Origin: Acidobacteriota bacterium
Lineage (GTDB): Bacteria > Acidobacteriota > Thermoanaerobaculia > Gp7-AA8
NCBI GenBank assembly: GCA_019244185.1
Contig: JAFATB010000014.1
Location: forward strand, 672,001-736,000
Reading direction: 5' to 3'
DNA: 64,000 nt
Position 1 is the stretch's first letter; each line of letters begins with the position of its first letter. Below are positions 38,423-56,284 of the stretch, one piece after another. Both the position numbers and the translations under genes were made by a program. The notes beneath the pieces are model-generated. The model ran no database searches, was not told where the DNA came from, and saw only the letters and a program-made list of their open reading frames with translations.

Positions 38423-38472
38423 CGCGCGGCCCGTCCTGTACGACCCATATCGTGTTTGTTGTTGAACGGCGC

Positions 38473-39276
38473 TCATTCGCGCACGATCTGGTACGCGATG
38501 AGAATGACACCGACGACAAACAATGCACATGCCGCGGCGACTGAGGGGATCTCCGGCGGCCGATGGCCTTTGACAATTTCGTACAAGCTCGAAAAGGCCC
38601 CGCTCAGGAATGCGCCGCCGAGCATGCCGCAGAGGGCGTGCAACTTACGGCGTCGTTGCCGCGCGATGTTCTTCACCGCCATCGTTACGTAAAAACCCGA
38701 GATCGCAGGCGCGTCGTGCCGACGCATCACGCCGACGCATTCCATGAGGAGGTCGTGAATGTACCGGTCGACAGAATCATGAAAGGCGCTGAGGCCGTCC
38801 GGTGCAAACGGCGAAACCGGAAGATTGCGCAGCTGCTTACGCGCCGCTTCGGTGATCGTGGGATTCGTGATGCCAAGAGTCATGTCCCTGCTTCCTTCCT
38901 GTGCGAGACCCGCCGCTCCGATTGCGCGCCGGTAGACGTCTTTCGTCTGCCGCTCCAGTGCTTTCAGCATGGTCGAAGCGCTTCGTCCAGGCGTGTTCGC
39001 GAGCAACCGCGCGACCGCCGTGATGAAGCCGGCGAGAATGGCGATGAGGCTCACGGTGAGCTCGCGTTCGAATGTGAGGGCGAACATGCCAGCGACCGAG
39101 ACCGCCCCGGTAAGTGCGGTGGCGATGGTGACCGTTACGCTCAGGACGAACCGTGACGCCGACGAATCACTCTCAATCATTTTCTCGACGCGGCGATAGA
39201 CCTCAGCAGCACTGAGATTGTTCGCGCGCAGACGACGAAGCTGCTCCAGGAGCTCTTCCAGCGTTTTTCTGTTCAC
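38473..39276 (-). CDS. Four-TM membrane protein with a central histone-fold-like segment
   Basis: GTG 39276 overlaps the upstream stop; two hydrophobic pairs flank FAPDGLSAFHDSVDRYIHDLLMECVGVMRRHDAPAISGFYVTMAVKNI. Confidence 0.55.
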   Translation of the reverse strand: MNRKTLEELLEQLRRLRANNLSAAEVYRRVEKMIESDSSASRFVLSVTVTIATALTGAVSVAGMFALTFERELTVSLIAILAGFITAVARLLANTPGRSASTMLKALERQTKDVYRRAIGAAGLAQEGSRDMTLGITNPTITEAARKQLRNLPVSPFAPDGLSAFHDSVDRYIHDLLMECVGVMRRHDAPAISGFYVTMAVKNIARQRRRKLHALCGMLGGAFLSGAFSSLYEIVKGHRPPEIPSVAAACALFVVGVILIAYQIVRE

Positions 39277-40124
39277 ACGCGTCCCTCGAGAGATTCCTGG
39301 TCGGCCTTGTAGTCGAGCAGCCGCTGCGGGACCGTGGTTCCGAAGCGATAGTTGGACGGGTTGTCGCCGCAACGATCGAGTACGGCACGCCAGAAGGTCT
39401 TCAATTCATGGACAGGTGGACGAGCCACGCGCTGTCCCGACGTCGGCACTGTCGGCAGAATCGCAGTGACACTTGCACCGTTTAGTTGCAGCAACGATAC
39501 GGGCGGGAGCGCGCGGGCCGCGGCGATTTCGCGTTCGATGGAGGTCTTCTGCAACTTCACCGGCTTGTGCAGCAGCGAATCGCCGCAGTCTTCGAGCATG
39601 TCGCTGACCACCACGATCTCGGCAGCGGTGCCTGGTTCCGTAATTTCTTCCGCTTTGCGGAATGCGCCTGAGACGCATGTGTGATTCCGGCCGTCGGCCG
39701 GCCCGGCAAGTAATGTTCTCAGTTTGTCCGCGACGTCCCGGCTCCATTTCGCGCGCGCCATATCGACGGCTACGGCATCGCTCGTAGTCTGAATCTGCGG
39801 CAGTTGGTCATTGAAGACGGCTCCGGCGCGCTGCACGTCTTCAAGCAGGGGAAACACGTACAAGTGAGCGCCTGTCGGTAGGAGACCGATGATCGTTTGT
39901 ACGTTGGCAATGACCGACGCCTGTTCCTGCGGCGTAAGACTGCGGGTGACGTCTGCAAAGACGATGAACAGACGCGGTGATGCCGGTGTTTCGACCGATC
40001 CGGCCGAGGAGGACGCGGACGGTGCCATCGCTGCGTTGCTGCCGGTTGATGTCGTCGGCTGCTTACCGCCGCAAGCGATGACGACGGCGACGACGACGAG
40101 GCTCAGCGCGGATCGCCGAATCAC
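39273..40124 (-). CDS. Lipoprotein with vWA-like domain
   Basis: Lipobox VVIAC; FIVFADVTRS (DxTxS), HTC and IVVVSDMLE MIDAS-like elements. Confidence 0.65.
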   Translation of the reverse strand: MIRRSALSLVVVAVVIACGGKQPTTSTGSNAAMAPSASSSAGSVETPASPRLFIVFADVTRSLTPQEQASVIANVQTIIGLLPTGAHLYVFPLLEDVQRAGAVFNDQLPQIQTTSDAVAVDMARAKWSRDVADKLRTLLAGPADGRNHTCVSGAFRKAEEITEPGTAAEIVVVSDMLEDCGDSLLHKPVKLQKTSIEREIAAARALPPVSLLQLNGASVTAILPTVPTSGQRVARPPVHELKTFWRAVLDRCGDNPSNYRFGTTVPQRLLDYKADQESLEGRV

Positions 40125-41344
40125 GATGACGTTCTCTCCTGGACTGGTGCTGCAGTTTCGCTGAAGTGACGTTCGGCGACGCCGAGCCTACGTTTCAATG
40201 CGACCTGAATGCGCTCGTGCAACCGTCGCCCGTCATGCAACGTCTCCGGGACGAGAACGCCTCTCAGGAATCCTTGTTCGTAAAGGCTCATGGCTACGGC
40301 CTCAACGCGTCCTGCGTCGAGTTGAGCTGCCGCGGCAGCCTCGTTTTCGGCGCTTTTCACGAGGGCCTCGGTCTTCCGCGCTTCGGCCATCAGCTCGTCC
40401 GCAGCGGATCGCGTCTCTCGACAGCTCTTTCTCAGGACGCGATACCGATTGATGTTCTGAATGCGACTCCAGCCGACGGACGCACAGATGCCGCCGATGA
40501 TCGGCAGCGTCAGCGTCAGCAGCACGAACGACATTCCGGCGTCTCTCTGCATCTTTGCGGTAAGGCCGACGACGTCGGCGGCCATGCCGTTCGTATCGGT
40601 TGCCGTCGCGCGCCGCGCTTCCTGCAGCGATTTAACGCCGGTGCGCAGTTCCGCGAGGTAGTAGAGATTCCACGTGACGAGCGTAATGAGCCCGACGACC
40701 ATGACGCCGGACACGATGCGCATCCAGAGCTTGTGCTGTAACGCCGGCTTGAAGAAGAAGTCCGCGACGAATTTGAAGAAGAGACCCAGCGCCGCGATGC
40801 CGATCGCGAAGGCGAGCGGTTCCCACATGGATCTCCAGTCCAGCCGGATCGAGTCGAGGTTTGCGAGTTTCGCGTAGTTCGTTTTGATCTCGAGACCATC
40901 GGCGGCGAGAAGCGAAAGCGGCAGATCTGCAATCCAAAGGATTGCCGCTACGACGCAGTAAACGACACCCAGAGGCCAGGAAAAACTTGCCGGACTGTCG
41001 AGACGGTGGCGCTCGAGCGCGATGAATCCCTCTTCGATCCGTACGGCGTCGCCGCGCGCCCGGTCGGCACGCTCGACGGCCGTGTGCATATCGGCTTTCG
41101 CCAGTTCGACGCGATGCGTCGTCGCTGCGCGTACTGCAGCGCACCACTGCTCGGCGCGATGACGGTAGACCGCTGAAATCTGCGGTGCGCGAACGCCGAG
41201 GCGACCGTCCGTCCAGCCCCGACGGTACTCCGCTTCACCGTACGAAGTCGGTAGCGGTTCACCCGAACTGTCATCGAAGCGTTCGTTGGTGTCGTTGCCT
41301 GCCAGTGGCCATGCGGAAACTTCATGTACTGTGTTGTCCGTCAT
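40121..41344 (-). CDS. Multi-pass membrane protein with flanking coiled coils
   Basis: About 4 hydrophobic segments between helical Ala/Glu/Arg-rich regions; ATGA/GTGA overlaps on both sides. Confidence 0.7.
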   Translation of the reverse strand: MTDNTVHEVSAWPLAGNDTNERFDDSSGEPLPTSYGEAEYRRGWTDGRLGVRAPQISAVYRHRAEQWCAAVRAATTHRVELAKADMHTAVERADRARGDAVRIEEGFIALERHRLDSPASFSWPLGVVYCVVAAILWIADLPLSLLAADGLEIKTNYAKLANLDSIRLDWRSMWEPLAFAIGIAALGLFFKFVADFFFKPALQHKLWMRIVSGVMVVGLITLVTWNLYYLAELRTGVKSLQEARRATATDTNGMAADVVGLTAKMQRDAGMSFVLLTLTLPIIGGICASVGWSRIQNINRYRVLRKSCRETRSAADELMAEARKTEALVKSAENEAAAAAQLDAGRVEAVAMSLYEQGFLRGVLVPETLHDGRRLHERIQVALKRRLGVAERHFSETAAPVQERTSS

Positions 41345-43356
41345 TTTTTCGTCCCTTCTGGGAGCGGAGGGGGAAGGGGTATCGCAAACCGGAGCGAGCG
41401 TGTGGCCGCCTCCTGAGAGAGAATCAGGAGCCGCAGTTCGTTCGCTCCTTTTCCCGCCCGCGCGATCAGTTCGGCGTCCTCGGCGGTGGACTCATCGACC
41501 CGTCCTTGCGTCTCTGCCAGTTCGCGGCGAAGTTCCTTTCGCCGTTCGAGTGAGGTCTCCCGTTCGATCTCTTCGATCTTGTTCGCGATTCGTTGTTTGC
41601 TCTCCTCCAGGCGCGAAATTTGACGTGACAGCTTCGTGATGGCCTCGAACAATTCGGGCGGCAAACCAGCGTCGAACGCCGCGAACTCGAAAGACGCAGT
41701 GAGCTGGGAAGTCTTCTTCCGCGATAACGGCCATAGGCTCACGGTGTACCAGTGTTTCTTTCCTGAGTTGCCGTTCGACATGCCATACCCGTTGCCGAGG
41801 CTTAGCGCGCGTTGAAACTTTTCAATACGCAAACGCTCGCGCGCGTAATCGGCGTCGATCTGGATCTGCCGTTGCAGCGCACGGCGGGAAAGCTGTGGTT
41901 GCTCGGGGCCGTACGTGTAGAAGCGGGTGTCAGCTTCAATTTCGCGCAAGCGCTCCTGCGTTTTGTCCACGTCCTTGTAAACACCTTTGTAGACGAGACC
42001 GTAGGCCAGCGACAGAGAGCCGAGAAGCATGAAAAGCATCCAGAGACCCCACCGCGCATCGCGCGCGAGGTACGCTGCCAACGTCACTGCGGCGATCAGG
42101 GCCAGCGGCGCGACCGCGAATTCCCATGAACTGCTGAAACTGCGGCCATCGTTCCGCGGCTCGATGATTTTGATCGCATACATCATTGTGACCGCGGCGG
42201 TGAGCATTGCGATCGTGCTTCCGATCGCCGTGTTGGTGAGGGTCGACAGTAAGTGACGGAAAACGCCCTGCTCCGTGCGGCCTGCGGCAACGAATGCTAC
42301 GATCATGCATCCCGCGAGAACGTAGGGTAGCGACGCGATCAGCCTGATGTATGAATGGCGCGTGATGTCGGCCTGGCCGAAATGCAGGCCTGGAATGGAC
42401 GTCGAGCGCCGTTCGAGTTTTTTCCATGAGTCGTAGAAACGGTGCATCAGCCAGTCGACACCGATCGTTGCGAATAGGAGTAAAAGGACGCATGCGAAAA
42501 GCAGCGTGAAAGGCGTCTCAAATCGTGACAGCGACTGGTTCGGTAAGTCCGCGAATGATCGGGCTGTCGTCAGCACCCAGTCGATGGTGAAGTCGTCATC
42601 GATCAATTGAGCAAATACTGCTCCGATTGCCGGAACGGAGGCGTATCCGACCCACGCCAGGAATCCTGCGAGAGTGCGGGTGATGAGGGCCGCGCTCAAG
42701 CGAGACGATCGCTGCTCGACTTCCTCTGCTAGTGTGCGCAGTTTCTCCGTCCGCGCTTTGAGCTCTTCGAGCTTTCGGGCACGACTCTCCGCCGCTGCCT
42801 CCCACGACTTTTTCCGCTCCTGAAATTCTCTGAGCGCGTCGCCATGGAGCCTGTCGCGAGCTTCCTGGCGCTGAATGTCGAGCTGCTGGATTTGAGCTGC
42901 AACTAGGGCCTGTGCGTTGGCCAACCGTTTCTCGTTGAGCTCTCGTTGGGCCCCGTCGAGTTGCGCCTGAAGGCCATCGAGCTCGCTGTCAATCCGCGCC
43001 GCCTCCGCGGAGTGCTCGCGGAGTTCCTCGGCGAGCGGCGTATGGACGGCCAGTTCTTCGTGAATGCGAGCCGCGTTTTGTAGAAGTTGTGAGCGTTCCC
43101 GATCCCCTCGAGCGATAATTGCAGCGCGTACGTTTCCCTCGATCGTCCTGACCCATACATCCATTTCGCGTCCATCCGACCCGCCATCGGGGAATGCCGC
43201 GCGGACGGTCGCTGCGTCGAGGACATCGTCGACCGTTACGAGGCCGGACGCCGGCCGTAGCAAGAGCACGGGCGTGCTTGCCGCGTCTTCTTTTGCGTCA
43301 TCGTCAATGTCCATCCTCTCCTCCGCCGGACGGCACTCTCTGCCTGCTACGGACAC
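41341..43356 (-). CDS. Coiled-coil multi-pass membrane protein
   Basis: Long N- and C-terminal heptad-rich regions around about 6 TM segments; start at 43356 or 43314. Confidence 0.7.
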   Translation of the reverse strand: MSVAGRECRPAEERMDIDDDAKEDAASTPVLLLRPASGLVTVDDVLDAATVRAAFPDGGSDGREMDVWVRTIEGNVRAAIIARGDRERSQLLQNAARIHEELAVHTPLAEELREHSAEAARIDSELDGLQAQLDGAQRELNEKRLANAQALVAAQIQQLDIQRQEARDRLHGDALREFQERKKSWEAAAESRARKLEELKARTEKLRTLAEEVEQRSSRLSAALITRTLAGFLAWVGYASVPAIGAVFAQLIDDDFTIDWVLTTARSFADLPNQSLSRFETPFTLLFACVLLLLFATIGVDWLMHRFYDSWKKLERRSTSIPGLHFGQADITRHSYIRLIASLPYVLAGCMIVAFVAAGRTEQGVFRHLLSTLTNTAIGSTIAMLTAAVTMMYAIKIIEPRNDGRSFSSSWEFAVAPLALIAAVTLAAYLARDARWGLWMLFMLLGSLSLAYGLVYKGVYKDVDKTQERLREIEADTRFYTYGPEQPQLSRRALQRQIQIDADYARERLRIEKFQRALSLGNGYGMSNGNSGKKHWYTVSLWPLSRKKTSQLTASFEFAAFDAGLPPELFEAITKLSRQISRLEESKQRIANKIEEIERETSLERRKELRRELAETQGRVDESTAEDAELIARAGKGANELRLLILSQEAATRSLRFAIPLPPPLPEGTKK

Positions 43357-43389: not shown

Positions 43390-45138
43390 TCATGTTCGTG
43401 GACGGCGCGTGAGTCCTCGCACGAGCAGGCAGGCAGCGGCCGCGGATATGAAGATCGCAATCGCGATCCACGTCACTGGCGGCGTTTGTTCGAATGCGAC
43501 ATCCGCCGGCGTAAAGCAGACGTTGTAGGTCTCAGGGAGCAATGCGCGCTCCGCCGAGAGATGTAGGCGATAGCGTCCGGGTGCCGCCGCGCCCTCGATG
43601 TGCGCCTCCAACACGCCGTTGCGCACATGGAACGCGGCGCGGTTCGGAGTCAGGTGATCCTCACGATAGACCGCAAGACGGAGCCACTGCGGCGCCGGTC
43701 CCGTATCCAGTGAGTACCAGTCCACGCGGCGGCGCGCTTCGTCACGGCAATCGATCGCGATCCGCGTGGGCCATGTCCACATGCCCATGGCGACGGTGCT
43801 GGTGCGGAAGGCACGGACGCGACAGTCGATCCGCTCGGCAGGTGTAACGGTAAAGCCCGACCAGTGGTCGTGAAAGATCGCTAGTTCGCGGCCGTTGATA
43901 TTCCGCGTGGTGATCCGGACATCGGTCCAGTAGCGGCCGGCGCGATGACAGGCGATGGAATGTGCAACGATGAACGTAGCCGGTGCGGACGCACGCACTC
44001 GCACCATGGCCGTGGGAACATGCGCGCCTGCTGGCGTCACCAGCATTAGCGACAGAGAAAGAGGGTATTCCGGCAGCTCGAGCATCGGCGTGCCATTGCT
44101 GTCGACGAGTCGGTACGCGATACCGACCTCGTCATGCTGCCGCGGAGCGGTGCCGACGGACGGATACAGAAGCATCCCGCGCGCGAAGAACTGTTGAGAG
44201 AAGATCTTCACGTGCAGGCGCCCGGCGGGTACGCGGAACAACCATTGGCCCGGCGCCGGACGATGGACGGTCACCGCGACGAGTGTGTCTCCCAGATGTA
44301 CGCGTTCGACGCCCGCACTACTGTCGTTCAGCGGCCACAACGTGTCGGGCGCGTAGATGTCGACCCGTCCCGTGGGCTTGGATCGCGAGACGATGTCGAA
44401 CACAACCACATCAAGATAGGGCGCTACAACCAGCACCTCGGCCGATTCCGATGCGGCAGTCGTCGTATCGCTTTCGCGCGACGGAGCGCCGAGGATCGTT
44501 GTGAAGACGGAGTGGATTGCCCGCACCGCGGTGATGCGGTTGCGCTGTAAGGCGTGTACACGGTTGTGAGAAACGGATTGCCATAAACCTCGAGGCACAC
44601 CGCCATGGATGCCATTGAGCAAGAAAACATCGATCGTCGCCGGCCCGAGATCGGCGGCCGTCATGCGCAGCAACTCACATGAGACACATCGTCCGCCGGC
44701 GGGACGACCGTTGGGAATGCCATCTGTCACCAGTACAACTGCGCGGCGCCTTAGCGGGTCGTCCGGCAATGACGCCAGCAAGTCGCGTGACGTTTCGAAC
44801 GCGCCGACGAGGTTTGTCCGTCCGAGGTGCGTTCGAGCGGTCGCATCAATGACGCGCCGGATCCCTTCGTGGTCTCGAGCGACGACCGTGAAGGGGAGGT
44901 CGATGCGTACGGTCGTACCGAAACTGACCAATGCGAGCCGGTGCATGAGGTGCGATGTCGTCGCGCTGTGTGCGAGCAACTCGGCGGCGACGATGCTGAC
45001 CGTGGAGGAAATACCTGCAGAGTCCCTCGTGCTCGCTGACCGATCGATGAGCACGAGCAGATCGACACCGGCATCCGCGTACACGGCCCGACTGACCAGG
45101 ATCAGCGCGAGCAGTGTCGGGACGACGAACCTGGACAC
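43390..45138 (-). CDS. Exported vWA domain protein with C-terminal membrane anchor
   Basis: Signal peptide; DLLVLIDRSAS (DxSxS), GRTNL, VLVTDG; C-terminal WIAIAIFISAAAACLLV followed by basic residues. Confidence 0.8.
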   Translation of the reverse strand: MSRFVVPTLLALILVSRAVYADAGVDLLVLIDRSASTRDSAGISSTVSIVAAELLAHSATTSHLMHRLALVSFGTTVRIDLPFTVVARDHEGIRRVIDATARTHLGRTNLVGAFETSRDLLASLPDDPLRRRAVVLVTDGIPNGRPAGGRCVSCELLRMTAADLGPATIDVFLLNGIHGGVPRGLWQSVSHNRVHALQRNRITAVRAIHSVFTTILGAPSRESDTTTAASESAEVLVVAPYLDVVVFDIVSRSKPTGRVDIYAPDTLWPLNDSSAGVERVHLGDTLVAVTVHRPAPGQWLFRVPAGRLHVKIFSQQFFARGMLLYPSVGTAPRQHDEVGIAYRLVDSNGTPMLELPEYPLSLSLMLVTPAGAHVPTAMVRVRASAPATFIVAHSIACHRAGRYWTDVRITTRNINGRELAIFHDHWSGFTVTPAERIDCRVRAFRTSTVAMGMWTWPTRIAIDCRDEARRRVDWYSLDTGPAPQWLRLAVYREDHLTPNRAAFHVRNGVLEAHIEGAAAPGRYRLHLSAERALLPETYNVCFTPADVAFEQTPPVTWIAIAIFISAAAACLLVRGLTRRPRT

Positions 45139-45147
45139 GCTGAGTCC

Positions 45148-48120
45148 TCACGACTGCCGGGGATTTTCGTCTGGCGCTGGTTCGTTCTGATTGCGATAGC
45201 GCCGGCGGTCGTACAGACGTGCGAGTGCCCGATATCTGCCGTTCGCGAAGAGCGCTTCCGCTTTGTCCGGCTGGCGCAGGAGATACCGCAACAACAGCTC
45301 GATCAACTCGATCTGGCAGTTTGTGTTCGGCGACGCCGTTTCATTCCAAGGCCGGATACGTAGCCGGATGCCGCCGTGCGCGTCCCATACCTGGTGTGCC
45401 GCGTCGACGACTTCCGTGACGAGCGTTTGGTGCGTTTGCGTATCGAGTGGCGAATGGGGCTCGTCGAACTTTTCGGGCGCCTCACGAAAGATGTGCATCG
45501 GGTAACGGTCAGGCGCTTTGTTGCGTTCCTGATCGCCGATGTGCGCCGCGTATTGCGCGAACAGTTCGTGCATGCCGTCCAGCGCGTTCGGAGGAATGCC
45601 GTAAATAAAGCTGACCACCCCCAGTTGCAGAGGGTCCGTTGAAACGAGCCGGTTCATTCGGCCGAGGGTTCGGCCGAACACGTCCGGCAGGATCAGGGAT
45701 GGCGGGGCGAGGAGGTAACTCTGCAACTGCTGGCCGACCGCGGCGCGCGAAAAGCTGACGAGCGGTTCGGCGCCCTCGTCGAGCGCTTCGGCTGCCGACC
45801 CGTGCAACTCTCGGGCGACTTGCGGCAGCATCCAGCCGTTGTCGAGAAACGTGAGTGCACCGGCGGTCATCGCCTTTACGTGCTGAAAGAGGATTTCAAT
45901 CGTCGTAGAACGATCGAGCGATGACAGCGTTTTCGAAGTCAGGCGATGGCAGTCCCGCGCAAGGCCGTTGCCGTGCAGCGGCGTGAGCACCACGTCCTCG
46001 GCGCTCACCTTCGCGACGTGTTCACCGAGCTCTTTGAGGAGCGTGTCGCTTGCAATGAGCCGTGTCGTGTACGCTTCCCACCGGCCGCGTGCATTGCTGC
46101 CTCGATATTTGCGCAACGCGACGCGGGCCAGGCGCCAATTATTATTCGCGAGAGTAGACGCGTTTTCCGCAGCCGTGATGGCGGGAGCAAGCACCTCATC
46201 GCGCCACCTCTTCAATTCGGTTGCAGCGATGACCCAGGCCCGTGGCGCCAGCGCATTGGCGACGTATGCGGTGCGGTGCGCGATCAATTGCTTGCGCAAG
46301 CTCTCCAGATCGCGTGCGATGCCGCTGAGTGTCTGGGTGAAAGCGCCACTGTGCGGAGATGGTGCGATCTTGAGATGAACGAGCAGACTGCGCCCCATCG
46401 CACGCCAGCCACGCTGTTCCAGTCGTTGTTTCTGCATCAACCCGCCGAGCCGGCTCTCGGCCGCATTGACCGCGTCTGCCAGGCTCGTCATCGAGGGGCG
46501 TTTGCTCGTTGCCGCCGCCTGATCCTCGAGTACTCTGGCGGCACGACTGAGAAGATCGTTCAGGAAGTGAAGGCCACGGCCCGTAGCCGGCTCCCAGGCC
46601 AAATCCCATAGACGTGCCGCGATCGCGCCGCCGTCGCGCAGGCCTTCATCCCAAACCGATTGCCAGCCCGGAAGCGCGTTGGCGAGCAATGTGGCAGCCG
46701 AGACGATGGTTCCGCTGTCTGCTGCCCGCGGTGCGACCAGAGAGGCGTCACGTTTCAAATCATCAATCGTGGCACGCGCCGCCTCCAAAAACTTCTTCGC
46801 GAGATCCACGGCGCGGTCGGGAAGCGTGGATGGGCCAGGCGCGGGCGGAAGACCTTTGCCCGGATCAGCGTCAGACTGCACGCGCGAGAGAAGGTCATCC
46901 CGCACGAGACCAAGTTCCGCCAGCAGACCATCCGGCTGAATGGCGCCATCCGAGAAGCCGAGGATCGTGTCGAATTCGTCGACCGGCTGTTGCTCGCGCC
47001 GGCGTGGCTTTCCATTGAGGGCGTGTTCAAGGGCCTCGCGAACCCAACCCCACCGGAACCAGTCTTTGATTTCTTCCGCCGGAAAACGGACGTTTCGAAC
47101 TCCGAAGCTGGCGAGAAACGTTTTACGCGAGCCGGTCTCCAGGCGTTTGCGCGTGTCCTCGGACAGGAGATCTTTGTTGTCGGCGTGAATGAATTCGGAA
47201 GCGTAACCGCGAACGCGCTCTTCGCGCTGGTTCGGCAGTAATTCGGAAATTTTCCTTCCCACTTCCGTCACGCAGAGATGCAGTTGTGCCTCGGCGATCG
47301 TCCACGCGACTTCGGCGAGGCTCCGCGTGGAGCCGCCCGCGGATTCCGGCCGGCCATCGATGTAGTAAACCCAATCGAAGAGCCGGTCGTCATCGCGCGT
47401 GTTGCCGATCGAGATGACCTGGTCGCGCAGGCGATAGGCGCTTCGAAACTCGTGGTCCGCCGCGAAATGGTGTAATTCCTTCACCAGCGCATACGTCGAT
47501 GCGCGCATCCGGTCGCGCTGGTCCTGACGCAGCGGCACCGATGGATCGTCGAGATAGACCGTCGGTCCGACGAGAAAGAAGAAAATCCGCGGACTCTCGC
47601 CTCGTTCGCGAAAGTAATGGCGCAGCAGCGCGGCCGCATCGAGAATCATCCCGGCGCCCGTACCACCGCACGCGCTCGCCGTCAGGAATACTTGGAGCGG
47701 CTGGGTCGGCGACGTGCGCCGTTCGCGCAGACGCGCGCAGGCCTGCTCGACGAGGCTGGAAAAATCATCGCGACAATTTACGAGGCTGGCGGCGCCGAAA
47801 ATCCGGGTGATGCCGCAGCCCTGGGACGAGTCGACCACCGGATGGTCGCCAATGTTCTCCGGGAAGCGGTGTTCGTGGAACTCTTTGAAGATGGGTTGTT
47901 CGAACTGATAAACATTGCGATAGCAATAATGGCGCGCGCGTTCGTGATCCTCGACGGCCGGTTCCTGGGAATCGATGAAAAACGGCTCGATCAGCTGTCG
48001 TTCGTCGGGTTTTAAGTTCTCTATGAGCGTCAGCAGAGATTTACCGGCGGCGATTCCGCTACCGCCGAGATACAGCGACAGCGTCGGTTGAAGCGTGGAG
48101 ATCTCAGTCCTGGTCAGCAT
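45148..48120 (-). CDS. Tubulin/FtsZ-like GTPase (Tubulin_2 / FtsZl1-type) with long helical C-terminus
   Basis: LYLGGSG, FIDS, QGCGITRIFG, SACGGTGAGMILD (tubulin signature variant), ASTYALVKEL, LFDWVYYID and FLASFG. Confidence 0.85.
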   Translation of the reverse strand: MLTRTEISTLQPTLSLYLGGSGIAAGKSLLTLIENLKPDERQLIEPFFIDSQEPAVEDHERARHYCYRNVYQFEQPIFKEFHEHRFPENIGDHPVVDSSQGCGITRIFGAASLVNCRDDFSSLVEQACARLRERRTSPTQPLQVFLTASACGGTGAGMILDAAALLRHYFRERGESPRIFFFLVGPTVYLDDPSVPLRQDQRDRMRASTYALVKELHHFAADHEFRSAYRLRDQVISIGNTRDDDRLFDWVYYIDGRPESAGGSTRSLAEVAWTIAEAQLHLCVTEVGRKISELLPNQREERVRGYASEFIHADNKDLLSEDTRKRLETGSRKTFLASFGVRNVRFPAEEIKDWFRWGWVREALEHALNGKPRRREQQPVDEFDTILGFSDGAIQPDGLLAELGLVRDDLLSRVQSDADPGKGLPPAPGPSTLPDRAVDLAKKFLEAARATIDDLKRDASLVAPRAADSGTIVSAATLLANALPGWQSVWDEGLRDGGAIAARLWDLAWEPATGRGLHFLNDLLSRAARVLEDQAAATSKRPSMTSLADAVNAAESRLGGLMQKQRLEQRGWRAMGRSLLVHLKIAPSPHSGAFTQTLSGIARDLESLRKQLIAHRTAYVANALAPRAWVIAATELKRWRDEVLAPAITAAENASTLANNNWRLARVALRKYRGSNARGRWEAYTTRLIASDTLLKELGEHVAKVSAEDVVLTPLHGNGLARDCHRLTSKTLSSLDRSTTIEILFQHVKAMTAGALTFLDNGWMLPQVARELHGSAAEALDEGAEPLVSFSRAAVGQQLQSYLLAPPSLILPDVFGRTLGRMNRLVSTDPLQLGVVSFIYGIPPNALDGMHELFAQYAAHIGDQERNKAPDRYPMHIFREAPEKFDEPHSPLDTQTHQTLVTEVVDAAHQVWDAHGGIRLRIRPWNETASPNTNCQIELIELLLRYLLRQPDKAEALFANGRYRALARLYDRRRYRNQNEPAPDENPRQS

Positions 48121-48125
48121 TCAGA

Positions 48126-50753
48126 TCATCTCGTGTAAAGCCAATCGAACGGCATGTAGTACGCGAGGTGCGACGCGAAATCCGTGTGCAATGCGGCATG
48201 CAACGCCCAAAGAATCAGCGCGCTGACGGCGAGGTTCTTGAGCAGGCGTCCGAGGGACCAGCCGGGGCTCGTTTGCACGACCACCTCACCGCTGGTGGCG
48301 GGGTCGTACTGAACGTATTCGAACTCCCAGACACTCCTGTCGATGTCGGCGGGATCGAGGATGCGGATTACGTCGCCTGGCGCGAGTTTCGATTGCGGCG
48401 GCGTAAGATAGCCGGAGGTGTCGTTCAAGTACTGTTGATGACCGGCGCGAGTTACCGTGCCCACGGTCGTGTCATCGAGTTCGGATCCGTGCTTCGGCAA
48501 CAGCAGCGCGCCGGCGGCGTCGCCGTCCCCGATCGCGATGGGGCCGAAACCGAGCGGCACGAAACGGCCTGTCTGGAATCGCCAGAAGCGTTTCACGAGA
48601 TTGGACTGCCCCCAAGTCCGGAGCGCGACGACCAACGACCCGAGAAGCAGAAACATCGCACTGGCGACGATGACGCCGTGCAAGGTGAGCTTTCCCAGAA
48701 GCGGCAGCGTCAGCGGTCTGGGATTGTGGAACACCGGTTTCGGCTCGAGGGTCATACCGAGGTCCGACGCGATGTGAATCTGCAACTCGCGCCGGATCGG
48801 ATGGGTCGACCAGCCGCTGTTCGGGTCCGGCGTAACGACGAGGTCGAGATGCGCGCCTCCTCCAGGGGGGAGATCGACTGGGCCGTAACGAAGTTTTCCA
48901 GACTCGAACGGTTCTCCTTCCAGGGATTCGCCATTCACGTTCAGCGCGAGGTCGGCAATCTTTCCCGTCAAAGGATCGGTGATCGCCTCGGGGATCGTGA
49001 CGGTGAACTGGCTCGCAGCGCTGAGATTCGTCTGCAGAGTACCCAAACGGACTGACCGCGTTTTGGATGGGTCCCACCACAGTGCGAACGATTTTCGCTC
49101 GTGTGCGAGGACGAACTTCGGAACGCTGACTTCGACGGTGAAGGGGATGGTGAGGCTCGGCGCGTCGTTCGTGCTGACGATGATGGACCCTGGGTATTTC
49201 CCTGGCTTCGGCAGCGGCCGTGATGGATCCATCGTCAGGCGGAGATGCAGTTCGAGCCCGCCCGGTGGAATCGTGTATCGCGCGGGTGCCGGCCGGATCT
49301 CGCTGCCGTTTGCCGTGAGTTTGCCGATCCCCGCTGGCACGCTCCAGGTGAACGAGGCTGCCTCCGGTCGGGAAGGCGTACCTTGGGCAAACTCTGCGAA
49401 GACTTTGAAAGACTCTTCAACGTCGGGATGCGCAGCGCTCAACGGGGGATCGAAGGCGAAGTTTTCCGGCGACGCGCGGAGGATCGGAGGTGGCTCTTGC
49501 ACGGCCAGATACTCGATGCGCGCCTCGGCGCGGTTCATCAACGCCGGCAGTTCGACGTGCACGATGACTTTGTGCTTACCCGGAGTAGCAGGGACATTAA
49601 ACGTGCCGCGGAAATTGTTGAATGCGATTGCCGTCGACCCACCTGCCGCGGTTTGTACCTCGCCGCTGACCTTCGCATCCGTAGCCGCAACCGGTCCGCT
49701 CGCCGTGACGGCGACGACGTCGATCGCGACTTGCTGATTGAAGAGATATTGCGGTTGCTCCGGCGCTGCTTTGATCGCCACGCGGAGATTCGACAGTGCC
49801 TCCATGAAAAATCGCAGCCCGAGGTGCCCTTGCGCGCCCGGCCTGGTGACACGAATCTGCAGCCGATAGTGGCCGGGTGCGCTAAAAAATGCCGTCCACG
49901 CCGCGATGCGCGGTACTCCTTCCGGCTCGACCGTGTACCGCTGCTCGCTGAACGTGGAACCGGTGAGCGAAAAGTCGATCTCTCCAGGCGCGAACTCCGT
50001 CGGATGATCGAGGATGAGCGTCAATCGCGCGCGATCGACGCCCGGCGGCACGGTGAACTCATGTTCCGTGACGTTTGACGCGAGCGTCCCGCCATCCAGA
50101 GGATAGATATTGTCGAGATTACCGACCAGTTCTTTCGCCTTTTGCAGCAATTCTTGATGCTGTTTGGCGATGAGCGTCCTGCCGCCGGTCGGAAGCGTGA
50201 GAGTGTCGAGGAATCTCTGATCGATATTGGTCGTCACGCCCAGGGCGAAGATCTGAATACCGGCCGCTACAGCGTGAGGGACGATTGCCGAAGTGATCGG
50301 CGTCGAAGTCGTCGGCATGCCGTCTGAGATCAGCACGATGCGACGTAGCGATGCCTTCGAGGTCGCAAGAATCGTGAGTGCATCGTCAAGCCCGGCCGCC
50401 ATGTTCGTACCGCCCGCTGCGACCGGCAAACGTCCGGCCTGAAGTCTTCTACGGATTTCGTCTGGCGGGTGCAGTCGGCCGTCGGTTGTCGTGCCGTCAG
50501 AAAAAAACACGACACCTGCCTGCACATCCGACGCGAGCTCCACGGCGTCGAGGATCAGACTGGCGGCGACTCCGCGCAGCGACAGTGGATCGGAGCCGGT
50601 CGGCCCGCCCATGGAACTCGAATTGTCGATGACGAACACGATGTCCTGCTTCGACAGCGGCGGCAGCGCCGACTGCGCGAACGCCGTCGCAGTCATCATC
50701 GGAAGTACGCACAGGACGGCGAACAGCGTCACGCAACGTGCTGGAGTAGGCAT
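48126..50753 (-). CDS. Exported vWA + Ig-like domain membrane protein with possible degenerate FHA tail
   Basis: Signal peptide from MPTPARC; DIVFVIDNSSSM, GGTNM, VLISDG; TM, then YLNDTSG...KLAPGDVIRI; final hydrophobic segment. Confidence 0.8.
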   Translation of the reverse strand: MPTPARCVTLFAVLCVLPMMTATAFAQSALPPLSKQDIVFVIDNSSSMGGPTGSDPLSLRGVAASLILDAVELASDVQAGVVFFSDGTTTDGRLHPPDEIRRRLQAGRLPVAAGGTNMAAGLDDALTILATSKASLRRIVLISDGMPTTSTPITSAIVPHAVAAGIQIFALGVTTNIDQRFLDTLTLPTGGRTLIAKQHQELLQKAKELVGNLDNIYPLDGGTLASNVTEHEFTVPPGVDRARLTLILDHPTEFAPGEIDFSLTGSTFSEQRYTVEPEGVPRIAAWTAFFSAPGHYRLQIRVTRPGAQGHLGLRFFMEALSNLRVAIKAAPEQPQYLFNQQVAIDVVAVTASGPVAATDAKVSGEVQTAAGGSTAIAFNNFRGTFNVPATPGKHKVIVHVELPALMNRAEARIEYLAVQEPPPILRASPENFAFDPPLSAAHPDVEESFKVFAEFAQGTPSRPEAASFTWSVPAGIGKLTANGSEIRPAPARYTIPPGGLELHLRLTMDPSRPLPKPGKYPGSIIVSTNDAPSLTIPFTVEVSVPKFVLAHERKSFALWWDPSKTRSVRLGTLQTNLSAASQFTVTIPEAITDPLTGKIADLALNVNGESLEGEPFESGKLRYGPVDLPPGGGAHLDLVVTPDPNSGWSTHPIRRELQIHIASDLGMTLEPKPVFHNPRPLTLPLLGKLTLHGVIVASAMFLLLGSLVVALRTWGQSNLVKRFWRFQTGRFVPLGFGPIAIGDGDAAGALLLPKHGSELDDTTVGTVTRAGHQQYLNDTSGYLTPPQSKLAPGDVIRILDPADIDRSVWEFEYVQYDPATSGEVVVQTSPGWSLGRLLKNLAVSALILWALHAALHTDFASHLAYYMPFDWLYTR

Positions 50754-50809
50754 GGTCGATTGGCTCCCGTGCATCTTGGACACGTCGGACCAGACAGATG
50801 TGAGACGCG

Positions 50810-53800
50810 TCAGTGCGCCGTCCAACGGCCTTGCGGATCGCCGGTCAGGGTGAAGGCTGCCCAGGCGGCCGGGCTGCGGAAGCGTGGATTCTTCAGCATC
50901 TCGCACTGTGCATCACGCAATGCCTCCGCGGCAGTGGCTCCGTGCAGGAGATGCTCGTAGAAGATCTTCATCAACGCTTCGGCGGCGTCATCGCCGATGT
51001 CCCACAGCGACGCGATGACTCCGGGTGTACCGCCATAGAGGAACGCTCGGGTAAGGCCGGTGATCTCATCGCCGCCGCTGCGGACGCCTGCCCCGGTGCT
51101 GCACGCAGACAGGACGACCAGATTGACGCCCGTGAGATCGACGTCAGAGAGGATCTCGTGAACTTCGAGATTCCCGTCCCGCGTCTTTGTCGGTGCGAGG
51201 GCGATACGGCTGAAGAGCGGATTTCGTGCGTCGTATTCACCGTGGGCGGCGATGTGTACCAGATCGTATTTGCCGGCCAATCCGTAGAGAAGTTCCTCAG
51301 TGGCCTCTTTGCCGAGGACCGGCTTCACGCCGAGAGCGCGAGCGATGTCTTCCGCTTCACGCTCTGCGCCCGGTAGCCGCTGCCGCTCCGATCCCGCGTC
51401 CGGATCTCCGAGGACGAGCGCGTGGCCCGTGACGGGGGACTCCTTCTGGCGAAGGAAGGCAATCGCGCTCGCGCTCGGCGCGTAAGTCAGGGTGTAATCC
51501 TGAACGAGATAGCGTTCGTTCTGAGGATTCTGGAGCGCGCCAAACGGCACATAATGCAAGACGCCGTGCGGGACGATCCAGACGCGTGTCGTACGGATGT
51601 ACGGCCGCACCGGCGCAAAGATCTTTGTGTAAAGTTCTCGAGCGTCAGCAGGCGGCGCGCATGGTGATAGCGGTGTTCCGCTGCGGCTTGCGGCCAGCAC
51701 ATTTGACCAGCAAAGCGCGCGCTGCTGATCGTTCCGATCGAACGGCAGTTTCACGTGCGTTACGTGGTCGCGATCGACGATCCATGCGTACGAGCCGAAC
51801 GGCGAGAGGAAATAGCTGACCAGCGTCGTGCCGGGGTCGAGCTGGTGCTGAACGTCACGTGTCGTCAGCGGTTCTACTTTAACCGTGGACGTGTACTCGG
51901 GATTTGCGGCTTTGAGACGGGTGAGCAATGCGCGATACCTGTCGCGGCCTTCCTGCAGATCCTTGTCGAGTTTGACGCTCGGCTGGCTGGCCCGCTGCTG
52001 TTCCCAGCGAGCGATGTTCAGGCGCAACGCTTCGGCCTCGGCAGCGAGAGGATCACGGCCGTGAGCCGGCTGGATTCGCGTATTGCCGATGACCTGCAGA
52101 AACGCACGGGCGCGAGCTCGCTCGGAGTACGCAAATGCCTCGTCTGAACGGCCGGCGCGGAGTAGTTGCTCGATGATCAGGTCAAAGTAAATTCCGCGGC
52201 CGCTGCCGAGATATCCGGCGAGCAATTCCTCGACCCGTACGTCATAAATTGTGCCTTCAATGGCCTTCGCGGCACGCTCGAGGTGTTCAATCGCGCCGCC
52301 TGCGTCTTGCTCCTTCCAATACGTGACGCCAAGGAGCGCCTCGTAGGAGGCCAGCAGATCGCCGTTCCCGCTTGCCTGGATTGCCTTTTGTAGCAGCTCT
52401 CGCGCAGCTTTCGTCTGATTTGTTTCCAGCAACACCTTGACGCGCGCCACGTAGGAGAGCGATGCGACGTTGGGAAGGGGAGCGGAACTGTCGAGTGGGC
52501 CGCTGGAACCCGGCATGCCACCGCGCATCCCGATGATGGCGAGCATCGCTTGCTCGGTATTCGTATCGAACATCAAGCCCTCGGCTTCCGCGGTGCGGAA
52601 AGCGTTGGCGAGTGTCTGCTCGGCGGCTGCCGCGCTTCCTTTGCCGGCCATGAAGGCCTTCACGGCCGCGATCGATTCGAGTACATCGCACGCGAGCGTG
52701 AAGCCGCTGCGATTCGCCAGTTCAATCCCGCGCGCCAACGCCTCGTTCGCGCTGTCGTCAGCGTCCATCAGCATGTAAACGTCGGCCAATATGCTCCAGG
52801 CAGAGGCCTCGAGATAAGGCAGCTTCGAGTTTTGAAACAGCCGGATGGACGTTTCCAGTTGGTTGGCGGCGGTGCCATAGTGGCCGCGCATCATGTTCAA
52901 GGAACCGAGATCCACGTAGACTGTTGCCTGGTCGCTGAGATTGTTCGCGGTGGTGGCCAGTTGCAGCGCTTCCTCCAGCGTCGTTTCCGTGTCCGTAAAA
53001 CGGCTGAAACGCAGGTATAGGTCTGCTCGGTCGGTCAGAACGTCGACCACGCGGTGGGCGTCGTTCGATGGCCGAACGATTTCCAGTGCCTTGTCGTTCC
53101 AGGCCAGCGCGTCATCGAGGTGCCCCCCCAGCACTTCCAACTCGGCGAGTTTGCCGTAGATGTGGACACGGGTGAGTTCATCGAGATTTCCGATACGCGG
53201 TAAGCCCGGCACGGCGTTCAGCGCCTTCTTGTATTCCGTCCGGGCATCGTCGAATCGCCACTGCCTCCTGCGGAGATCGCCAAAATGCTGTGCGATCGAA
53301 CTGTCGAGAACCCCGCCGAACATCTGCTGTAACGTCGTGGCCTTCGTCAATTCGCGTTCCGCTTCATCCAACTTGCCGCACTCGAGCAAAGCGGAGCCGT
53401 ATGCGTCCCGGGTCACCGCTTCGGCAAACATGAGCAAAATCGGTTTGAAGACTTCTGTAGATTCGTCGCCGAGTGAAGACAGCATGTTGGCCTGCTGACC
53501 GAACGCCGCGGCCAGTGCCTGAAGTGACGTCGTGGAGAATGGCTTGTCGGGCGCCGCGGCATCGGCCAGGTGCTTCAGCGCCCGCTCGGCTGCTGACGCG
53601 GCAGCGTCGTAACGACCTTCGTGGCTTTCGAGCGACGCGCGCATCCAAAGGGCGACCCAGGCGCCGAACGAATCGCCGATGGTATCGAAGGTCGTGATCG
53701 CTTCTTCCAGGTTCAGCCGTGCTGATGGCGCGTCGTTCATCGCCATGTCGGTGATGGCGAGCATGAGCGAAGCGACAGCTTCGTTGGGTCGATCGGCCTG

Positions 53801-53950
53801 CGCTCGATAAGCCTGCTGCGCGGCGATGATTTTGTCGCGCGCGGCGGCGGTTTGCCCGGCCACGATCATCGGGCCAATATTCGCGAGCCTGTCGTCGTTG
53901 GCCGCCGCAGGCGATGCCAGTAGCATGAAAACCACGAGGAGTCGTTTCAT
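50810..53950 (-). CDS. Exported TPR + CHAT protease
   Basis: Signal MKRLLVVFMLLASPAAA; ERARARAF, PHGVLHYVPF, VHIAAHG, VLSACSTG, ASLWDIGD and AWAAFTLTG. Confidence 0.92.
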   Translation of the reverse strand: MKRLLVVFMLLASPAAANDDRLANIGPMIVAGQTAAARDKIIAAQQAYRAQADRPNEAVASLMLAITDMAMNDAPSARLNLEEAITTFDTIGDSFGAWVALWMRASLESHEGRYDAAASAAERALKHLADAAAPDKPFSTTSLQALAAAFGQQANMLSSLGDESTEVFKPILLMFAEAVTRDAYGSALLECGKLDEAERELTKATTLQQMFGGVLDSSIAQHFGDLRRRQWRFDDARTEYKKALNAVPGLPRIGNLDELTRVHIYGKLAELEVLGGHLDDALAWNDKALEIVRPSNDAHRVVDVLTDRADLYLRFSRFTDTETTLEEALQLATTANNLSDQATVYVDLGSLNMMRGHYGTAANQLETSIRLFQNSKLPYLEASAWSILADVYMLMDADDSANEALARGIELANRSGFTLACDVLESIAAVKAFMAGKGSAAAAEQTLANAFRTAEAEGLMFDTNTEQAMLAIIGMRGGMPGSSGPLDSSAPLPNVASLSYVARVKVLLETNQTKAARELLQKAIQASGNGDLLASYEALLGVTYWKEQDAGGAIEHLERAAKAIEGTIYDVRVEELLAGYLGSGRGIYFDLIIEQLLRAGRSDEAFAYSERARARAFLQVIGNTRIQPAHGRDPLAAEAEALRLNIARWEQQRASQPSVKLDKDLQEGRDRYRALLTRLKAANPEYTSTVKVEPLTTRDVQHQLDPGTTLVSYFLSPFGSYAWIVDRDHVTHVKLPFDRNDQQRALCWSNVLAASRSGTPLSPCAPPADARELYTKIFAPVRPYIRTTRVWIVPHGVLHYVPFGALQNPQNERYLVQDYTLTYAPSASAIAFLRQKESPVTGHALVLGDPDAGSERQRLPGAEREAEDIARALGVKPVLGKEATEELLYGLAGKYDLVHIAAHGEYDARNPLFSRIALAPTKTRDGNLEVHEILSDVDLTGVNLVVLSACSTGAGVRSGGDEITGLTRAFLYGGTPGVIASLWDIGDDAAEALMKIFYEHLLHGATAAEALRDAQCEMLKNPRFRSPAAWAAFTLTGDPQGRWTAH

Positions 53951-53964
53951 AATCGCGCCTCACC

Positions 53965-56226
53965 TCAGTGGGACGGCAGCGACTCGACGATGAGCCGGTC
54001 GAGCGACCAGCCGCGCGTCTTGATGCGTTGACCGGAGCGTTTCTGCCCCACCGACGACAGCAATGTCTCGAGCGGTGACGCCGTGTCCCGCGTGCGCGTC
54101 TGAACGCCGTTCCATTCCAGCACCCAGGGATTTGGCAACGGTTCATCCGTCGACAGGAGAAAGTAGGTGTCCACTCCCCACGGCGGGGAAGCGACGAACG
54201 ATGCTGGCAGCGCGATTTCAGAAGGCGGTGCGGCAGCGTCCAACGGAAAGCGGTTTTCGACAGAGCTGGCCGGGTAGAGCAAAATACCGCGGCCCCAGCT
54301 ATCGATCAGAAAGGCATAAACGTAGCGGCGCGCGACAGTGGGCGATGGCGTCGCGCGTGCGCGCAGGCACAGACGATAATTCTCCCCTTCATGCAATAAA
54401 CTGTCTTCGACCCATGCACCATCGCGCAAACGGCGTACTGCCATGACGTACGGAAATGCAGAGTCCGGCGGTGCGTCCATCGTTTGCCATCCGTGGATGC
54501 GTGCGAGACGCAGCAGGTCGTCGTAAAAGAGGGCACCGGAATCTTCAGCCGCGGTTTTCCACGTGGTCCGTAGCGGCAAAACGCTGCGCCGCGCGTCATC
54601 AACGGCCAGCCCGGGCCGCACCCACGCGTATTCGACGGAATCCTCGGCGAATCGACCGGCGAGCACGTAATCGGCGACATCGGGATCGCTGACGAAAGTG
54701 ATATTGCCGCCGCTCTCCTCGTGCTCGTGTTCGATCTCGCTCACCGTCGTGCCTGAAAGGGGCACCTGCACGAACAATCTCGCATTTCGTGGCAGCGCTG
54801 CGATGATCGTTGCGGCATCCGTCTCTTTGGAGAATCTCGAACGCTGTCGGTCATCCGTCACGAGTTCCCATCCGGCATCGCGATAGCGCAACAGATGCGT
54901 GGGAGAGACGGAGGTTGGATCCTCCGTCCATCGCACGCCAGTGCGCACGGCGATCTCCTTCAACTGGCGGACGAACGGTTCGAGCGCCGTTGCCGTGGCC
55001 GGTAGCGCCACACGCAGAGGTGGTGACGGTGGGGCTGCCCATGTACGCATTTCGAAGAGATCGCCGGAGTGGACGGCCTTCGACGCAAGCCGCTCCGGGT
55101 TTCCATTCAGCCGCGCTTCGCAGGCTCCGTAGCCGATCAGCGCGGTTACGATCAGCTCCAAAGAGGGATCGGAAGCCGATCGTAGTTCGCTGCCTTCGGT
55201 GATGCCGTTGATCCAGCCTCCTTGCAAGACGATGCGATCGCCATCGACAGCGCGGACGGCGACGGCATTGTGGTGCGGCGCCGCGTCGTTGTTGCCAGCA
55301 AGGAACGGCCGGACGCGATCATTCGGTGCGGCGGCGAGGACTGGATCCTGGTCGGCGCGCTCCGCGCGCAAGCGAGCTTGCGCGCGGAGAAATGTGTCGA
55401 TTGTGGTCTCGTTCGGCGTCGCATCGCGCATGGCCCGGGCGAGCGCCCATGAAAATGCGCCATGCATCTTTCCTTCGGCGTCCAGCGTTTCCCACGCGAG
55501 ATCGAAATCCTGTGCCGCCGCCAGAATCACCGCGCCGCGATCCTCCGGCCGCGGGCCGGCGCCCGCGCCGTCAATCACGGCGCGCGAATCCGGCCTGACG
55601 CCGCGTACGGGCAGGCCACTCGGCATCCCTCGGCCGGCGGAGCCGCTGTGGCAACTGTCGAGAACGACCGTTAGCTGGGCTCCGCGATCGAGAATGGCAT
55701 TGAAAAGCCGGCGCAGTTCCTTGTCACGGATGTCTGCCGCTCCAAGAATCGCGTCGGCCGGCACGATCGTCTCATCGCGTCGATCGGGCTCTGTTGATTG
55801 GGGATTGAAAACCTGGGAGCCGTGGCCGGAGTAGTAAAAGAGAATGACGTCGTGCGCGGTGGCCTTCGACGCGAGCGCGCCCAAGGCCTGGAGAATGGCT
55901 GTGCGCGTGGCCTGCTGATCCTTCAATGTGATGATGTTCGATGCCGTGAACCCGTATCGGCCGGCGAGGAGCGTTGCCGCGGTTTCGACATCCATGACGG
56001 CACCGCGAAGATTGTTAATGCCGCGCGGATTGCGGATCGCGCTCCGTGCGATCGTCGACGCGCTGTAGTCGTTGATCCCCACGAGTAGCGCCCGCTTCAC
56101 CACCGCTGGGCGTGTGGCTGCTGCCGGTCCGGCTTGGATGCCGAACGAAGTTGCGGCCGTGGCTTGATGAACGAGACACAGAACGACACACGACGCCCAG
56201 CAGGCGTTCCAATACGGACTCCTCAA
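53965..56226 (-). CDS. Exported caspase-family (C14) protease with C-terminal DUF4384-like domain
   Basis: TTG start after a GGAGGT RBS; KRALLVGINDY, LRGAVMD, FYYSGHGSQ (His), LDSCHSG (Cys), HGAFSWAL and QDPVL. Confidence 0.9.
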   Translation of the reverse strand: MRSPYWNACWASCVVLCLVHQATAATSFGIQAGPAAATRPAVVKRALLVGINDYSASTIARSAIRNPRGINNLRGAVMDVETAATLLAGRYGFTASNIITLKDQQATRTAILQALGALASKATAHDVILFYYSGHGSQVFNPQSTEPDRRDETIVPADAILGAADIRDKELRRLFNAILDRGAQLTVVLDSCHSGSAGRGMPSGLPVRGVRPDSRAVIDGAGAGPRPEDRGAVILAAAQDFDLAWETLDAEGKMHGAFSWALARAMRDATPNETTIDTFLRAQARLRAERADQDPVLAAAPNDRVRPFLAGNNDAAPHHNAVAVRAVDGDRIVLQGGWINGITEGSELRSASDPSLELIVTALIGYGACEARLNGNPERLASKAVHSGDLFEMRTWAAPPSPPLRVALPATATALEPFVRQLKEIAVRTGVRWTEDPTSVSPTHLLRYRDAGWELVTDDRQRSRFSKETDAATIIAALPRNARLFVQVPLSGTTVSEIEHEHEESGGNITFVSDPDVADYVLAGRFAEDSVEYAWVRPGLAVDDARRSVLPLRTTWKTAAEDSGALFYDDLLRLARIHGWQTMDAPPDSAFPYVMAVRRLRDGAWVEDSLLHEGENYRLCLRARATPSPTVARRYVYAFLIDSWGRGILLYPASSVENRFPLDAAAPPSEIALPASFVASPPWGVDTYFLLSTDEPLPNPWVLEWNGVQTRTRDTASPLETLLSSVGQKRSGQRIKTRGWSLDRLIVESLPSH

Positions 56227-56284
56227 GAGACACCTCCGTCAGGCGGAAGAGCGGATTGTTGGGGAAAGTGGCGGGTAGGCGCGC

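Follow-up and report, generated by a model that had tools for sequence, protein, structure and literature searches.

Prokaryotic histone-fold proteins are actively studied, and among them the "transmembrane histones" are a catalogue entry. They form a minor category for which, in the available part of the source, a possible role outside genome organisation is mentioned (Schwab et al. 2024, Nat Commun 15:7950, PMC11390915). The supplementary category list of that study contains 152 occurrences of the phrase "Transmembrane histone"; neither a partner gene nor an operon context nor a fused form is described in the available part of its text, and its Supplementary Fig. 7 may bear on these points. 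A literature search turned up no paper that describes a partner gene or an operon of transmembrane histones, and no other paper on such proteins.

Two further groups of systems are relevant to the locus described here. Operons that combine FtsZl1 (Tubulin_2) and vWA genes with lineage-specific transmembrane (TM) genes were described by Makarova and Koonin 2010 (PMC2875224), who name no histone-fold component in the portion of the paper available. Tubulin-vWA conflict systems are treated in the accessible part of Kaur et al. 2020 (PMC7159879), a text in which the word "histone" has 0 occurrences. Finally, an evolutionary link between the lid of AAA+ proteins and the histone fold has been proposed (Alva et al. 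2007, PMC1847821, as given in the part available).

We analysed a window of 64,000 nucleotides (the whole stretch of acidobacterial DNA considered, to which all positions refer), in which the gene g11 closes a long co-directional array. Among known kinds, g11 comes closest to the transmembrane histones of Schwab et al.; it is placed there by described features, the published list being one of accession numbers only. As in the description available for that category, the g11 family combines a histone fold with TM helices and is devoid of conventional DNA-binding residues (PMC11390915). Unlike the usual transmembrane histones, g11 is fused to a partner and is about twice their usual 130-145 aa. 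The kind itself was already known and is uncharacterised; the partner pairing and the natural fusion are what this locus adds.

Start codon and membrane layout of g11

The longest reading of the g11 ORF starts at a TTG and extends over 38473-39372 (minus strand, 299 aa). We nevertheless take the product to be 267 aa, because the GTG at 39276 and the stop of the upstream g10 overlap by 4 bases (GTGTGA), and because the N-terminus read from this GTG aligns with the first residues of P0003, the closest split homologue. The features of g11 and of its surroundings are collected in Table 1. The peptide quoted at 38883-38665 in the first-pass annotation was read correctly and corresponds to residues 132-204 of g11.

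Two TM segments had been proposed before and two after a central domain, an arrangement borne out by hydropathy and by the AlphaFold2 model. TM1 (residues ~43-69) and TM2 (~71-95) precede the domain in the hydropathy profile, and a clear hydrophobic stretch follows it at ~246-265. Residues 214-236 are more weakly hydrophobic, Gly/Ser-rich and below the hydropathy threshold used; we call them a putative TM3 because the structure model predicts there a helix continuous with the preceding domain. Lys and Arg are distributed unevenly, with 9 in residues 1-42, 19 in residues 94-213 and 1 in each of the two short loops, and the N-terminus and the central domain are therefore placed in the cytoplasm. 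The domain closes with a basic juxtamembrane run, RQRRRK. In the TM hairpin that follows, the family conserves a G-x-x-G-G motif in TM3 and Gly256 in TM4, which is consistent with tight helix packing. An AlphaFold2 model of full-length g11 built on 13 sequences has a pLDDT of 64, with 33-60 in the N-terminal half; since this half is modelled poorly, the full-length model lends no support to a packing of the hairpins.

Table 1. Positions in the window of g11, its parts and the neighbouring genes (residue numbers are those of the 267-aa product).
Feature	Positions	Strand	Description
g11	38473..39276	-	267 aa, four-pass membrane protein; partner and transmembrane histone fused in frame; Logan contigs agree
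N-terminal half (partner module), residues 1-131	38884..39276	-	N-terminal helices, TM1, TM2, amphipathic helix
TM1	39070-39150	-	
TM2	38992-39066	-	
Amphipathic helix, residues 99-121	38914-38982	-	
Shine-Dalgarno-like purine-rich run AGGAAGGAAG	38891..38900	-	Ends 7 bases before the internal ATG
Internal ATG, Met132	38881..38883	-	Matches the start codon of the unfused histone-fold gene of relatives
Cytoplasmic histone-fold domain, residues ~139-212	38641..38862	-	alpha1 141-150, L1, alpha2 159-186 (28 residues), L2, alpha3 from 194
C-terminal TM hairpin	38479..38637	-	Putative TM3 ~214-236, continuous with alpha3 in the model; TM4 ~243-266
g10	39273..40124	-	Predicted lipoprotein, signal peptide ending ..ACGG; conserved DVT.S motif; tail cassette
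g09	40121..41344	-	407-aa multi-pass membrane protein, no known family; tail cassette
g08	41341..43356	-	671 aa; TM block between two coiled coils; opens the tail cassette
Upstream array	43390..60666	-	VWA 582 aa, Tubulin_2 990, VWA 926, TPR-CHAT 1046, caspase C14 753, unknown ORF, CHAT 1110

Two genes joined at Met132

g11 is an in-frame fusion of two genes that are separate and translationally coupled in relatives. An exhaustive HMMER search of 1.84 billion representatives recovered 98 proteins matching g11 at E<=0.001. The great majority (92) cover only residues from 114 onward and are mostly 100-165 aa long, while 4 (124-131 aa) cover the N-terminal half only; the two that span both halves are the g11 protein itself and P0006 (252 aa). 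In relatives the counterpart of the N-terminal half is thus a separate gene product of 124-131 aa. Among the closest database relatives, P0003 (131 aa) is 55% identical to the N-terminal half, and P0002 (134 aa), 58% identical to the C-terminal half, starts at the position of Met132.

The first-pass annotation had taken the internal ATG as a hint of a fusion or of a second start, and in relatives there are indeed two genes that divide exactly at Met132. The homologue in G023 consists of two genes (131 and 129 aa) with an ATGA overlap, that in G026 of two genes overlapping as TGATG and that in G514 also of two genes; in G503 both halves stand in one frame with a single stop between them. In g11 the ATGA signature persists at the internal ATG, and the N-terminal half now reads in the same frame. 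The purine-rich run noticed before this ATG is present (AGGAAGGAAG) and probably remains from the ancestral second gene; Met132 may still serve as an internal start. Fusions also occur in P0006 and in P0066, the N-terminus of the latter being unrelated.

Logan contigs from three runs of three studies were compared with the window over 38300-39500. They agree with it in every letter and without gaps, at word depths of 34, 78 and 93; all three runs are flagged as possible sources of the DNA and are separate assemblies. The identity of these independent contigs indicates that the fusion is no assembly slip.

The histone-fold gene and its partner

In 13 of 13 loci the histone-fold gene is immediately preceded by a gene whose product ends in two TM helices and an amphipathic helix, or is fused to it. 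These loci are the window, ten genomes (G023, G026, G514, G012, G466, G521, G503, G513, G047 and G051) and two metagenome contigs (L022 and L023), and they are not independent, G503, G513 and G521 being syntenic in one genus and G047 and G051 belonging to one family. The partner is most often a small protein of ~120-150 aa. In G012 it is a 247-aa four-TM protein; in L023 it forms the C-terminus of a 668-aa product that matches fn3, and in G047 and G051 that of an HMGL-like enzyme, with a carboxyltransferase gene adjoining in G051. When an HMM of the N-terminal half was run against the distant partners, P0006 alone was clearly found; L022 followed at 0.014 and the rest were not significant. Homology among the distant partners is therefore not demonstrable by sequence. 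Since fused forms exist (Rosetta-stone evidence), the partner and the histone halves would act together.

Besides G023, G026 and L021, nine loci have the pair in other surroundings. Where it stands alone, the pair adjoins ordinary chromosomal genes, encoding metallo-beta-lactamase fold proteins, GGDEF proteins, glutamine synthetase and HMGL-like enzymes. Judged from gene order, the conserved unit is the pair of histone-fold gene and partner, not the tubulin operon. The family is thinly spread: it is found in 9 of the 121 genomes of the taxonomic family, and a survey of the phylum (401 genomes) gave 3 clear cases and 3 weak matches within long ORFs; a single-protein query matched 5 of 61 relatives.

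Two observations concern the neighbourhood of individual pairs. Convergent with the pair of G012 lies a 364-aa ORF (L004, 331-1425, plus strand) whose N-terminus, judged by eye, may be TIR-like. L022 (3079-5408, minus strand) is a low-GC contig on which genes for IS21-type IstB and transposase lie at a distance of ~1 kb from the pair.

Array and tail cassette

Eleven ORFs follow one another closely in the same direction from 60666 to 38473, with g11 in last place; their order is CHAT, unknown ORF, caspase, TPR-CHAT, VWA, Tubulin_2, VWA, g08, g09, g10 and g11. The array is flanked downstream by a convergent ABC transporter and upstream by a divergent ECF sigma factor gene. It resembles the FtsZl1-vWA operons in having a Tubulin_2 gene between two vWA genes, together with several lineage-specific TM proteins, and differs from them in that g08-g11 form a separable cassette that occurs without tubulin or vWA genes in relatives. 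Indeed, the g08-g09-g10 block recurs in G023, G026, L019 and L021 and is partly seen in G514. A split g11 pair follows the block in G023, G026 and G514; nothing follows it in L019, where g11 is absent, and L021 retains only a disrupted remnant of g11. Thus the cassette can exist without g11.

The surroundings of the block vary. In G023 and L021 it is flanked by a divergent gene for an AI-2E transporter and by a gene for a beta-helix protein; an ABC-F ATPase gene precedes it in L019, and in G026 genes for a TPR-CHAT protein and an S8 peptidase are close by. Within at least 8 kb upstream of the block in each of G023, G026 and L021 there is no tubulin or vWA match at E<=1e-3, i.e. the conserved linkage to Tubulin_2 expected of a component of FtsZl1-vWA operons is not seen in these three. 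Because the block recurs without tubulin or vWA genes, and the pair stands in ordinary contexts, the link to tubulin is not a conserved association. The earlier statement that the gene "terminates the tubulin operon" is accurate for the window, where g11 is the last gene of an array containing Tubulin_2, and does not extend to the relatives examined. The description of the protein as an "effector" of this operon does not stand as worded, the cassette or the pair occurring in relatives without tubulin or vWA genes.

These data bear on a reading that we regard as unlikely, in which g11 is the membrane-permeabilising effector of a CHAT/caspase/vWA/tubulin conflict system and forms a four-TM pore upon activation of the proteases or the tubulin-like protein. 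It closes a compact array, read in one direction, that also encodes CHAT, caspase and VWA proteins, a position that would suit such a role, arrays of this type being described as conflict systems in the part of the source available (PMC7159879); the GC content of the array region is lower than that of its flank, and the cassette of G026 adjoins TPR-CHAT and S8 peptidase genes. However, no PADLOC model matches g08-g11 beyond coiled-coil noise, and the cassettes of G023, L021 and L019 lie beside the AI-2E transporter, beta-helix protein or ABC-F ATPase genes without a protease, tubulin or vWA gene. The pair alone, moreover, is found in the ordinary contexts listed above.

Several features of the array and cassette were recorded in addition. 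The product of g10 displays an invariant F.ADVT.SL and a VSDMLEDC pattern, reminiscent of a vWA MIDAS site; it has no Pfam match, and its profile against the PDB gave nothing below E 0.29. For g09, the ESM Atlas returned unnamed clusters only. In L021 (12072-13040, plus strand) the remnant of the N-terminal half is followed by several hundred bases of Phe/Ser/Leu-rich low-complexity sequence, and the g08-g10 matches of this contig are fragmented, owing to decay of the cassette or to poor assembly.

The Tubulin_2 match at 45148-48120 (minus strand) covers only profile positions 112-354 of 356. A regular expression for the GGGTGSG-type loop found nothing in the 990-aa product. This GTPase may have diverged or be inactive.

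The ECF sigma factor gene (Sigma70_r2/r4) and a 248-aa ORF without family, at 60744-62049 (plus strand), point away from the first CHAT gene and are a possible regulator pair for the array. GC content drops from 0.66-0.72 at 14-38 kb of the window to 0.61-0.635 at 38-64 kb. The Logan contigs of the three runs all end within ~90 bases of 38300, near 38209, within the convergent ABC ATPase gene at its 3' end. Possibly the array as a whole is a variable island.

A probable histone fold in the C-terminal half

The C-terminal half was aligned over 79 sequences (g11 and 78 relatives) and has a strongly conserved core, consisting of Phe157, Tyr172-Ile173, Asp175-Leu176, Glu179-Ser180, Arg186, Asp190, Ser193 and Val197, with Ala200 invariant. 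The number of database matches and this conservation show the domain to be no chance feature. AlphaFold2 modelling of residues 132-267 on these sequences reached a pLDDT of 92.8. The helix-long helix-helix pattern proposed in the first-pass annotation is reproduced by the model, with helices at 141-150, 159-186 and from 194 onward, their lengths of 10, 28 and 43 residues following the order of a histone fold. The third extends into a TM helix, after which comes the fourth TM helix. The modelled domain thus has the short-long-short succession that characterises the fold, in which two short loops flank a middle helix of ~28 residues.

Comparisons with known structures point in the same direction. 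Foldseek against the PDB listed 45 matches, of which 44 are histone-fold entries by title (NF-Y, nucleosomes, TAF, CHRAC, NC2 and Pol epsilon; E 0.11-0.65), the lone exception among the matches listed being TolQRA. VIA-align applied to the Foldseek candidates aligned H4 and TAF chains at Z 6.2-6.7 (rmsd 2.2-3.2 A over 60-76 residues), a Z of ~6 being commonly seen for helical models. Histone-fold chains make up 42 of the 50 rows listed; the other 8, which include the five best, align the TM hairpin only or are other helical proteins. A wider VIA comparison with the PDB aligned the TM hairpin only in 50 of 50 listed rows (model residues 70-136, Z 7.4-8.9) and so says nothing about the histone fold. 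The family profile searched against PDB sequences gave histone-fold proteins in 58 of the 60 rows listed, the best being H2B (E 0.002), H3 (0.0036), NF-YB (0.007) and HPhA (0.0087). TAF, TFIID-31kDa and CBFD_NFYB_HMF clusters appear in the ESM Atlas structure search, with TM-scores by query all below 0.5, and one family member is labelled "histone H3/H4" by its source.

The g11 domain resembles H2B, NF-YB, NC2-beta and archaeal histones in its alpha1-L1-alpha2-L2-alpha3 order, the profile similarity extending over alpha2-L2-alpha3. The domain first described as histone-fold-like thus draws support from AlphaFold2, Foldseek, VIA-align and the comparison of the family profile with the PDB, with weak statistics (best E 0.002). 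We consider the assignment to be very probable, although each statistic is weak alone.

The g11 protein reached the gathering score of 0 Pfam families, PADLOC and NCBIfam searches gave no match for g09-g11, and a PF00808 search of the whole genome gave nothing at E<=0.01. A word-index homologue search with g11 recovered the protein itself alone, and one with the family profile 12 proteins; restricting the profile search to longer proteins found none, which is weak evidence. P0109 used as a query against the metagenome contigs had no match. Scanned singly, 14 of the 79 family members match CBFD_NFYB_HMF at E<=1 (best 4.8e-4).

In the same scan the models of AAA+ lids are more numerous, LonB_AAA-LID matching 41 of 79 members (best E 2.1e-5), Cdc6_lid 15 and TIP49_C 3, and the AAA protease AFG3L2 is among the PDB matches of the family profile. 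The domain could accordingly be a monomeric bundle of the AAA+-lid type whose ATPase was lost, serving as a small interaction domain in the cytoplasm and forming no handshake dimer. We consider this improbable. The two LonB-lid matches with coordinates cover only profile positions 30-61 of 65, i.e. the end of alpha2, L2 and alpha3; what the g11 domain has in common with the LonB/Cdc6 lids is their second helix-strand-helix unit, and such a unit is common to AAA+ lids and histones according to the part of Alva et al. 2007 available (PMC1847821). Nearly all the structural and PDB-sequence matches listed are histone folds. Moreover, an AAA+ lid is a compact bundle that follows a P-loop ATPase core, whereas g11 is without P-loop or ATPase domain and has a membrane anchor. 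The central helix of the model is long, single and unbroken over its 28 residues, and for this reason the histone fold is favoured over the AAA+ lid.

Charge of the domain and DNA binding

In contrast to H2B, NF-YB, NC2-beta and archaeal histones, the g11 family has a near-neutral domain with an acidic loop 2, and its third helix extends into the membrane as a TM helix. An acidic residue, Asp or Glu, occupies position 190 of loop 2 in 84% of the 79 members, and the net charge of the domain has a median of +1 (range -5 to +5). The domain of g11 itself is at the basic end, at +5, much of which is due to the juxtamembrane RQRRRK. The contact pattern of nucleosomal and archaeal-type histones (basic L1/L2, positive surface) is absent from the family as a group. 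The conserved residues and the near-neutral charge thus argue against DNA binding, which is unlikely for the transmembrane-histone domain as far as sequence can tell, and the "DNA-contact module" of the first-pass annotation is not supported.

That g11 uses a basic histone fold to hold DNA at the inner membrane is hence a very doubtful proposition: DNA binding is common among histone folds and g11 has both its charge of +5 and RQRRRK next to the membrane, but charges elsewhere in the family descend to -5 around a median of +1 with the acidic residue of loop 2 conserved, RQRRRK at the membrane interface fits the positive-inside rule, and the transmembrane category is described as devoid of conventional DNA-binding residues in the available part of Schwab et al. 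(PMC11390915).

A proposed membrane-embedded anchor or scaffold

The reading that we prefer, with a probability of about 0.55, is that g11 is a membrane-embedded dimerising anchor or scaffold, made of a partner and a transmembrane histone fused together, that does not bind DNA. In its second half, a histone fold similar to that of H2B, NF-YB and archaeal histones would lie in the cytoplasm, and the alpha3 of this fold would run into the TM hairpin. The two TM hairpins of one g11 would pack as a four-helix membrane bundle, and the histone folds of two units would pair by handshake under the membrane. The resulting module would act as an anchor or scaffold that dimerises the cargo of the partner; for g11 it would organise g08-g10, i.e. 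the coiled-coil membrane proteins and the lipoprotein. Histone folds usually pair as handshake dimers, and the dimerisation proposed in the first-pass annotation would follow from the fold. A two-copy prediction of the C-terminal half as a homodimer scored 0.02 (mark 0.42), the fold of the partner being itself uncertain.

We tentatively extend this proposal, at somewhat less than even odds, to the family: the histone-fold/two-TM protein and its two-TM-helix partner would be a widespread two-component module, in which the handshake clamps two four-helix bundles and which is reused for varied cargo. A carboxyltransferase-type enzyme, a large fn3 surface protein and a coiled-coil membrane cassette are possible cargoes. 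The pair itself is independent of the tubulin/vWA/caspase array that precedes g11.

If the anchor reading is true, it gives the bacterial histone fold a defined non-chromatin job, and a handshake clamp, if true, would be a compact natural device for the dimerisation of membrane proteins. The natural fusion and the pairs conserved in 13 of 13 loci provide transmembrane histones with a candidate physical partner.

HMGL-like enzymes are encoded on two contigs, L016 (16579-18075, plus strand) and L017 (1904-3292, minus strand). They are 462-498 aa long and end in a two-TM anchor, and the gene after each encodes a transmembrane histone; the enzyme gene of L017 has a carboxyltransferase gene as its neighbour. 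These enzymes may form a membrane-anchored decarboxylase or carboxylase complex.
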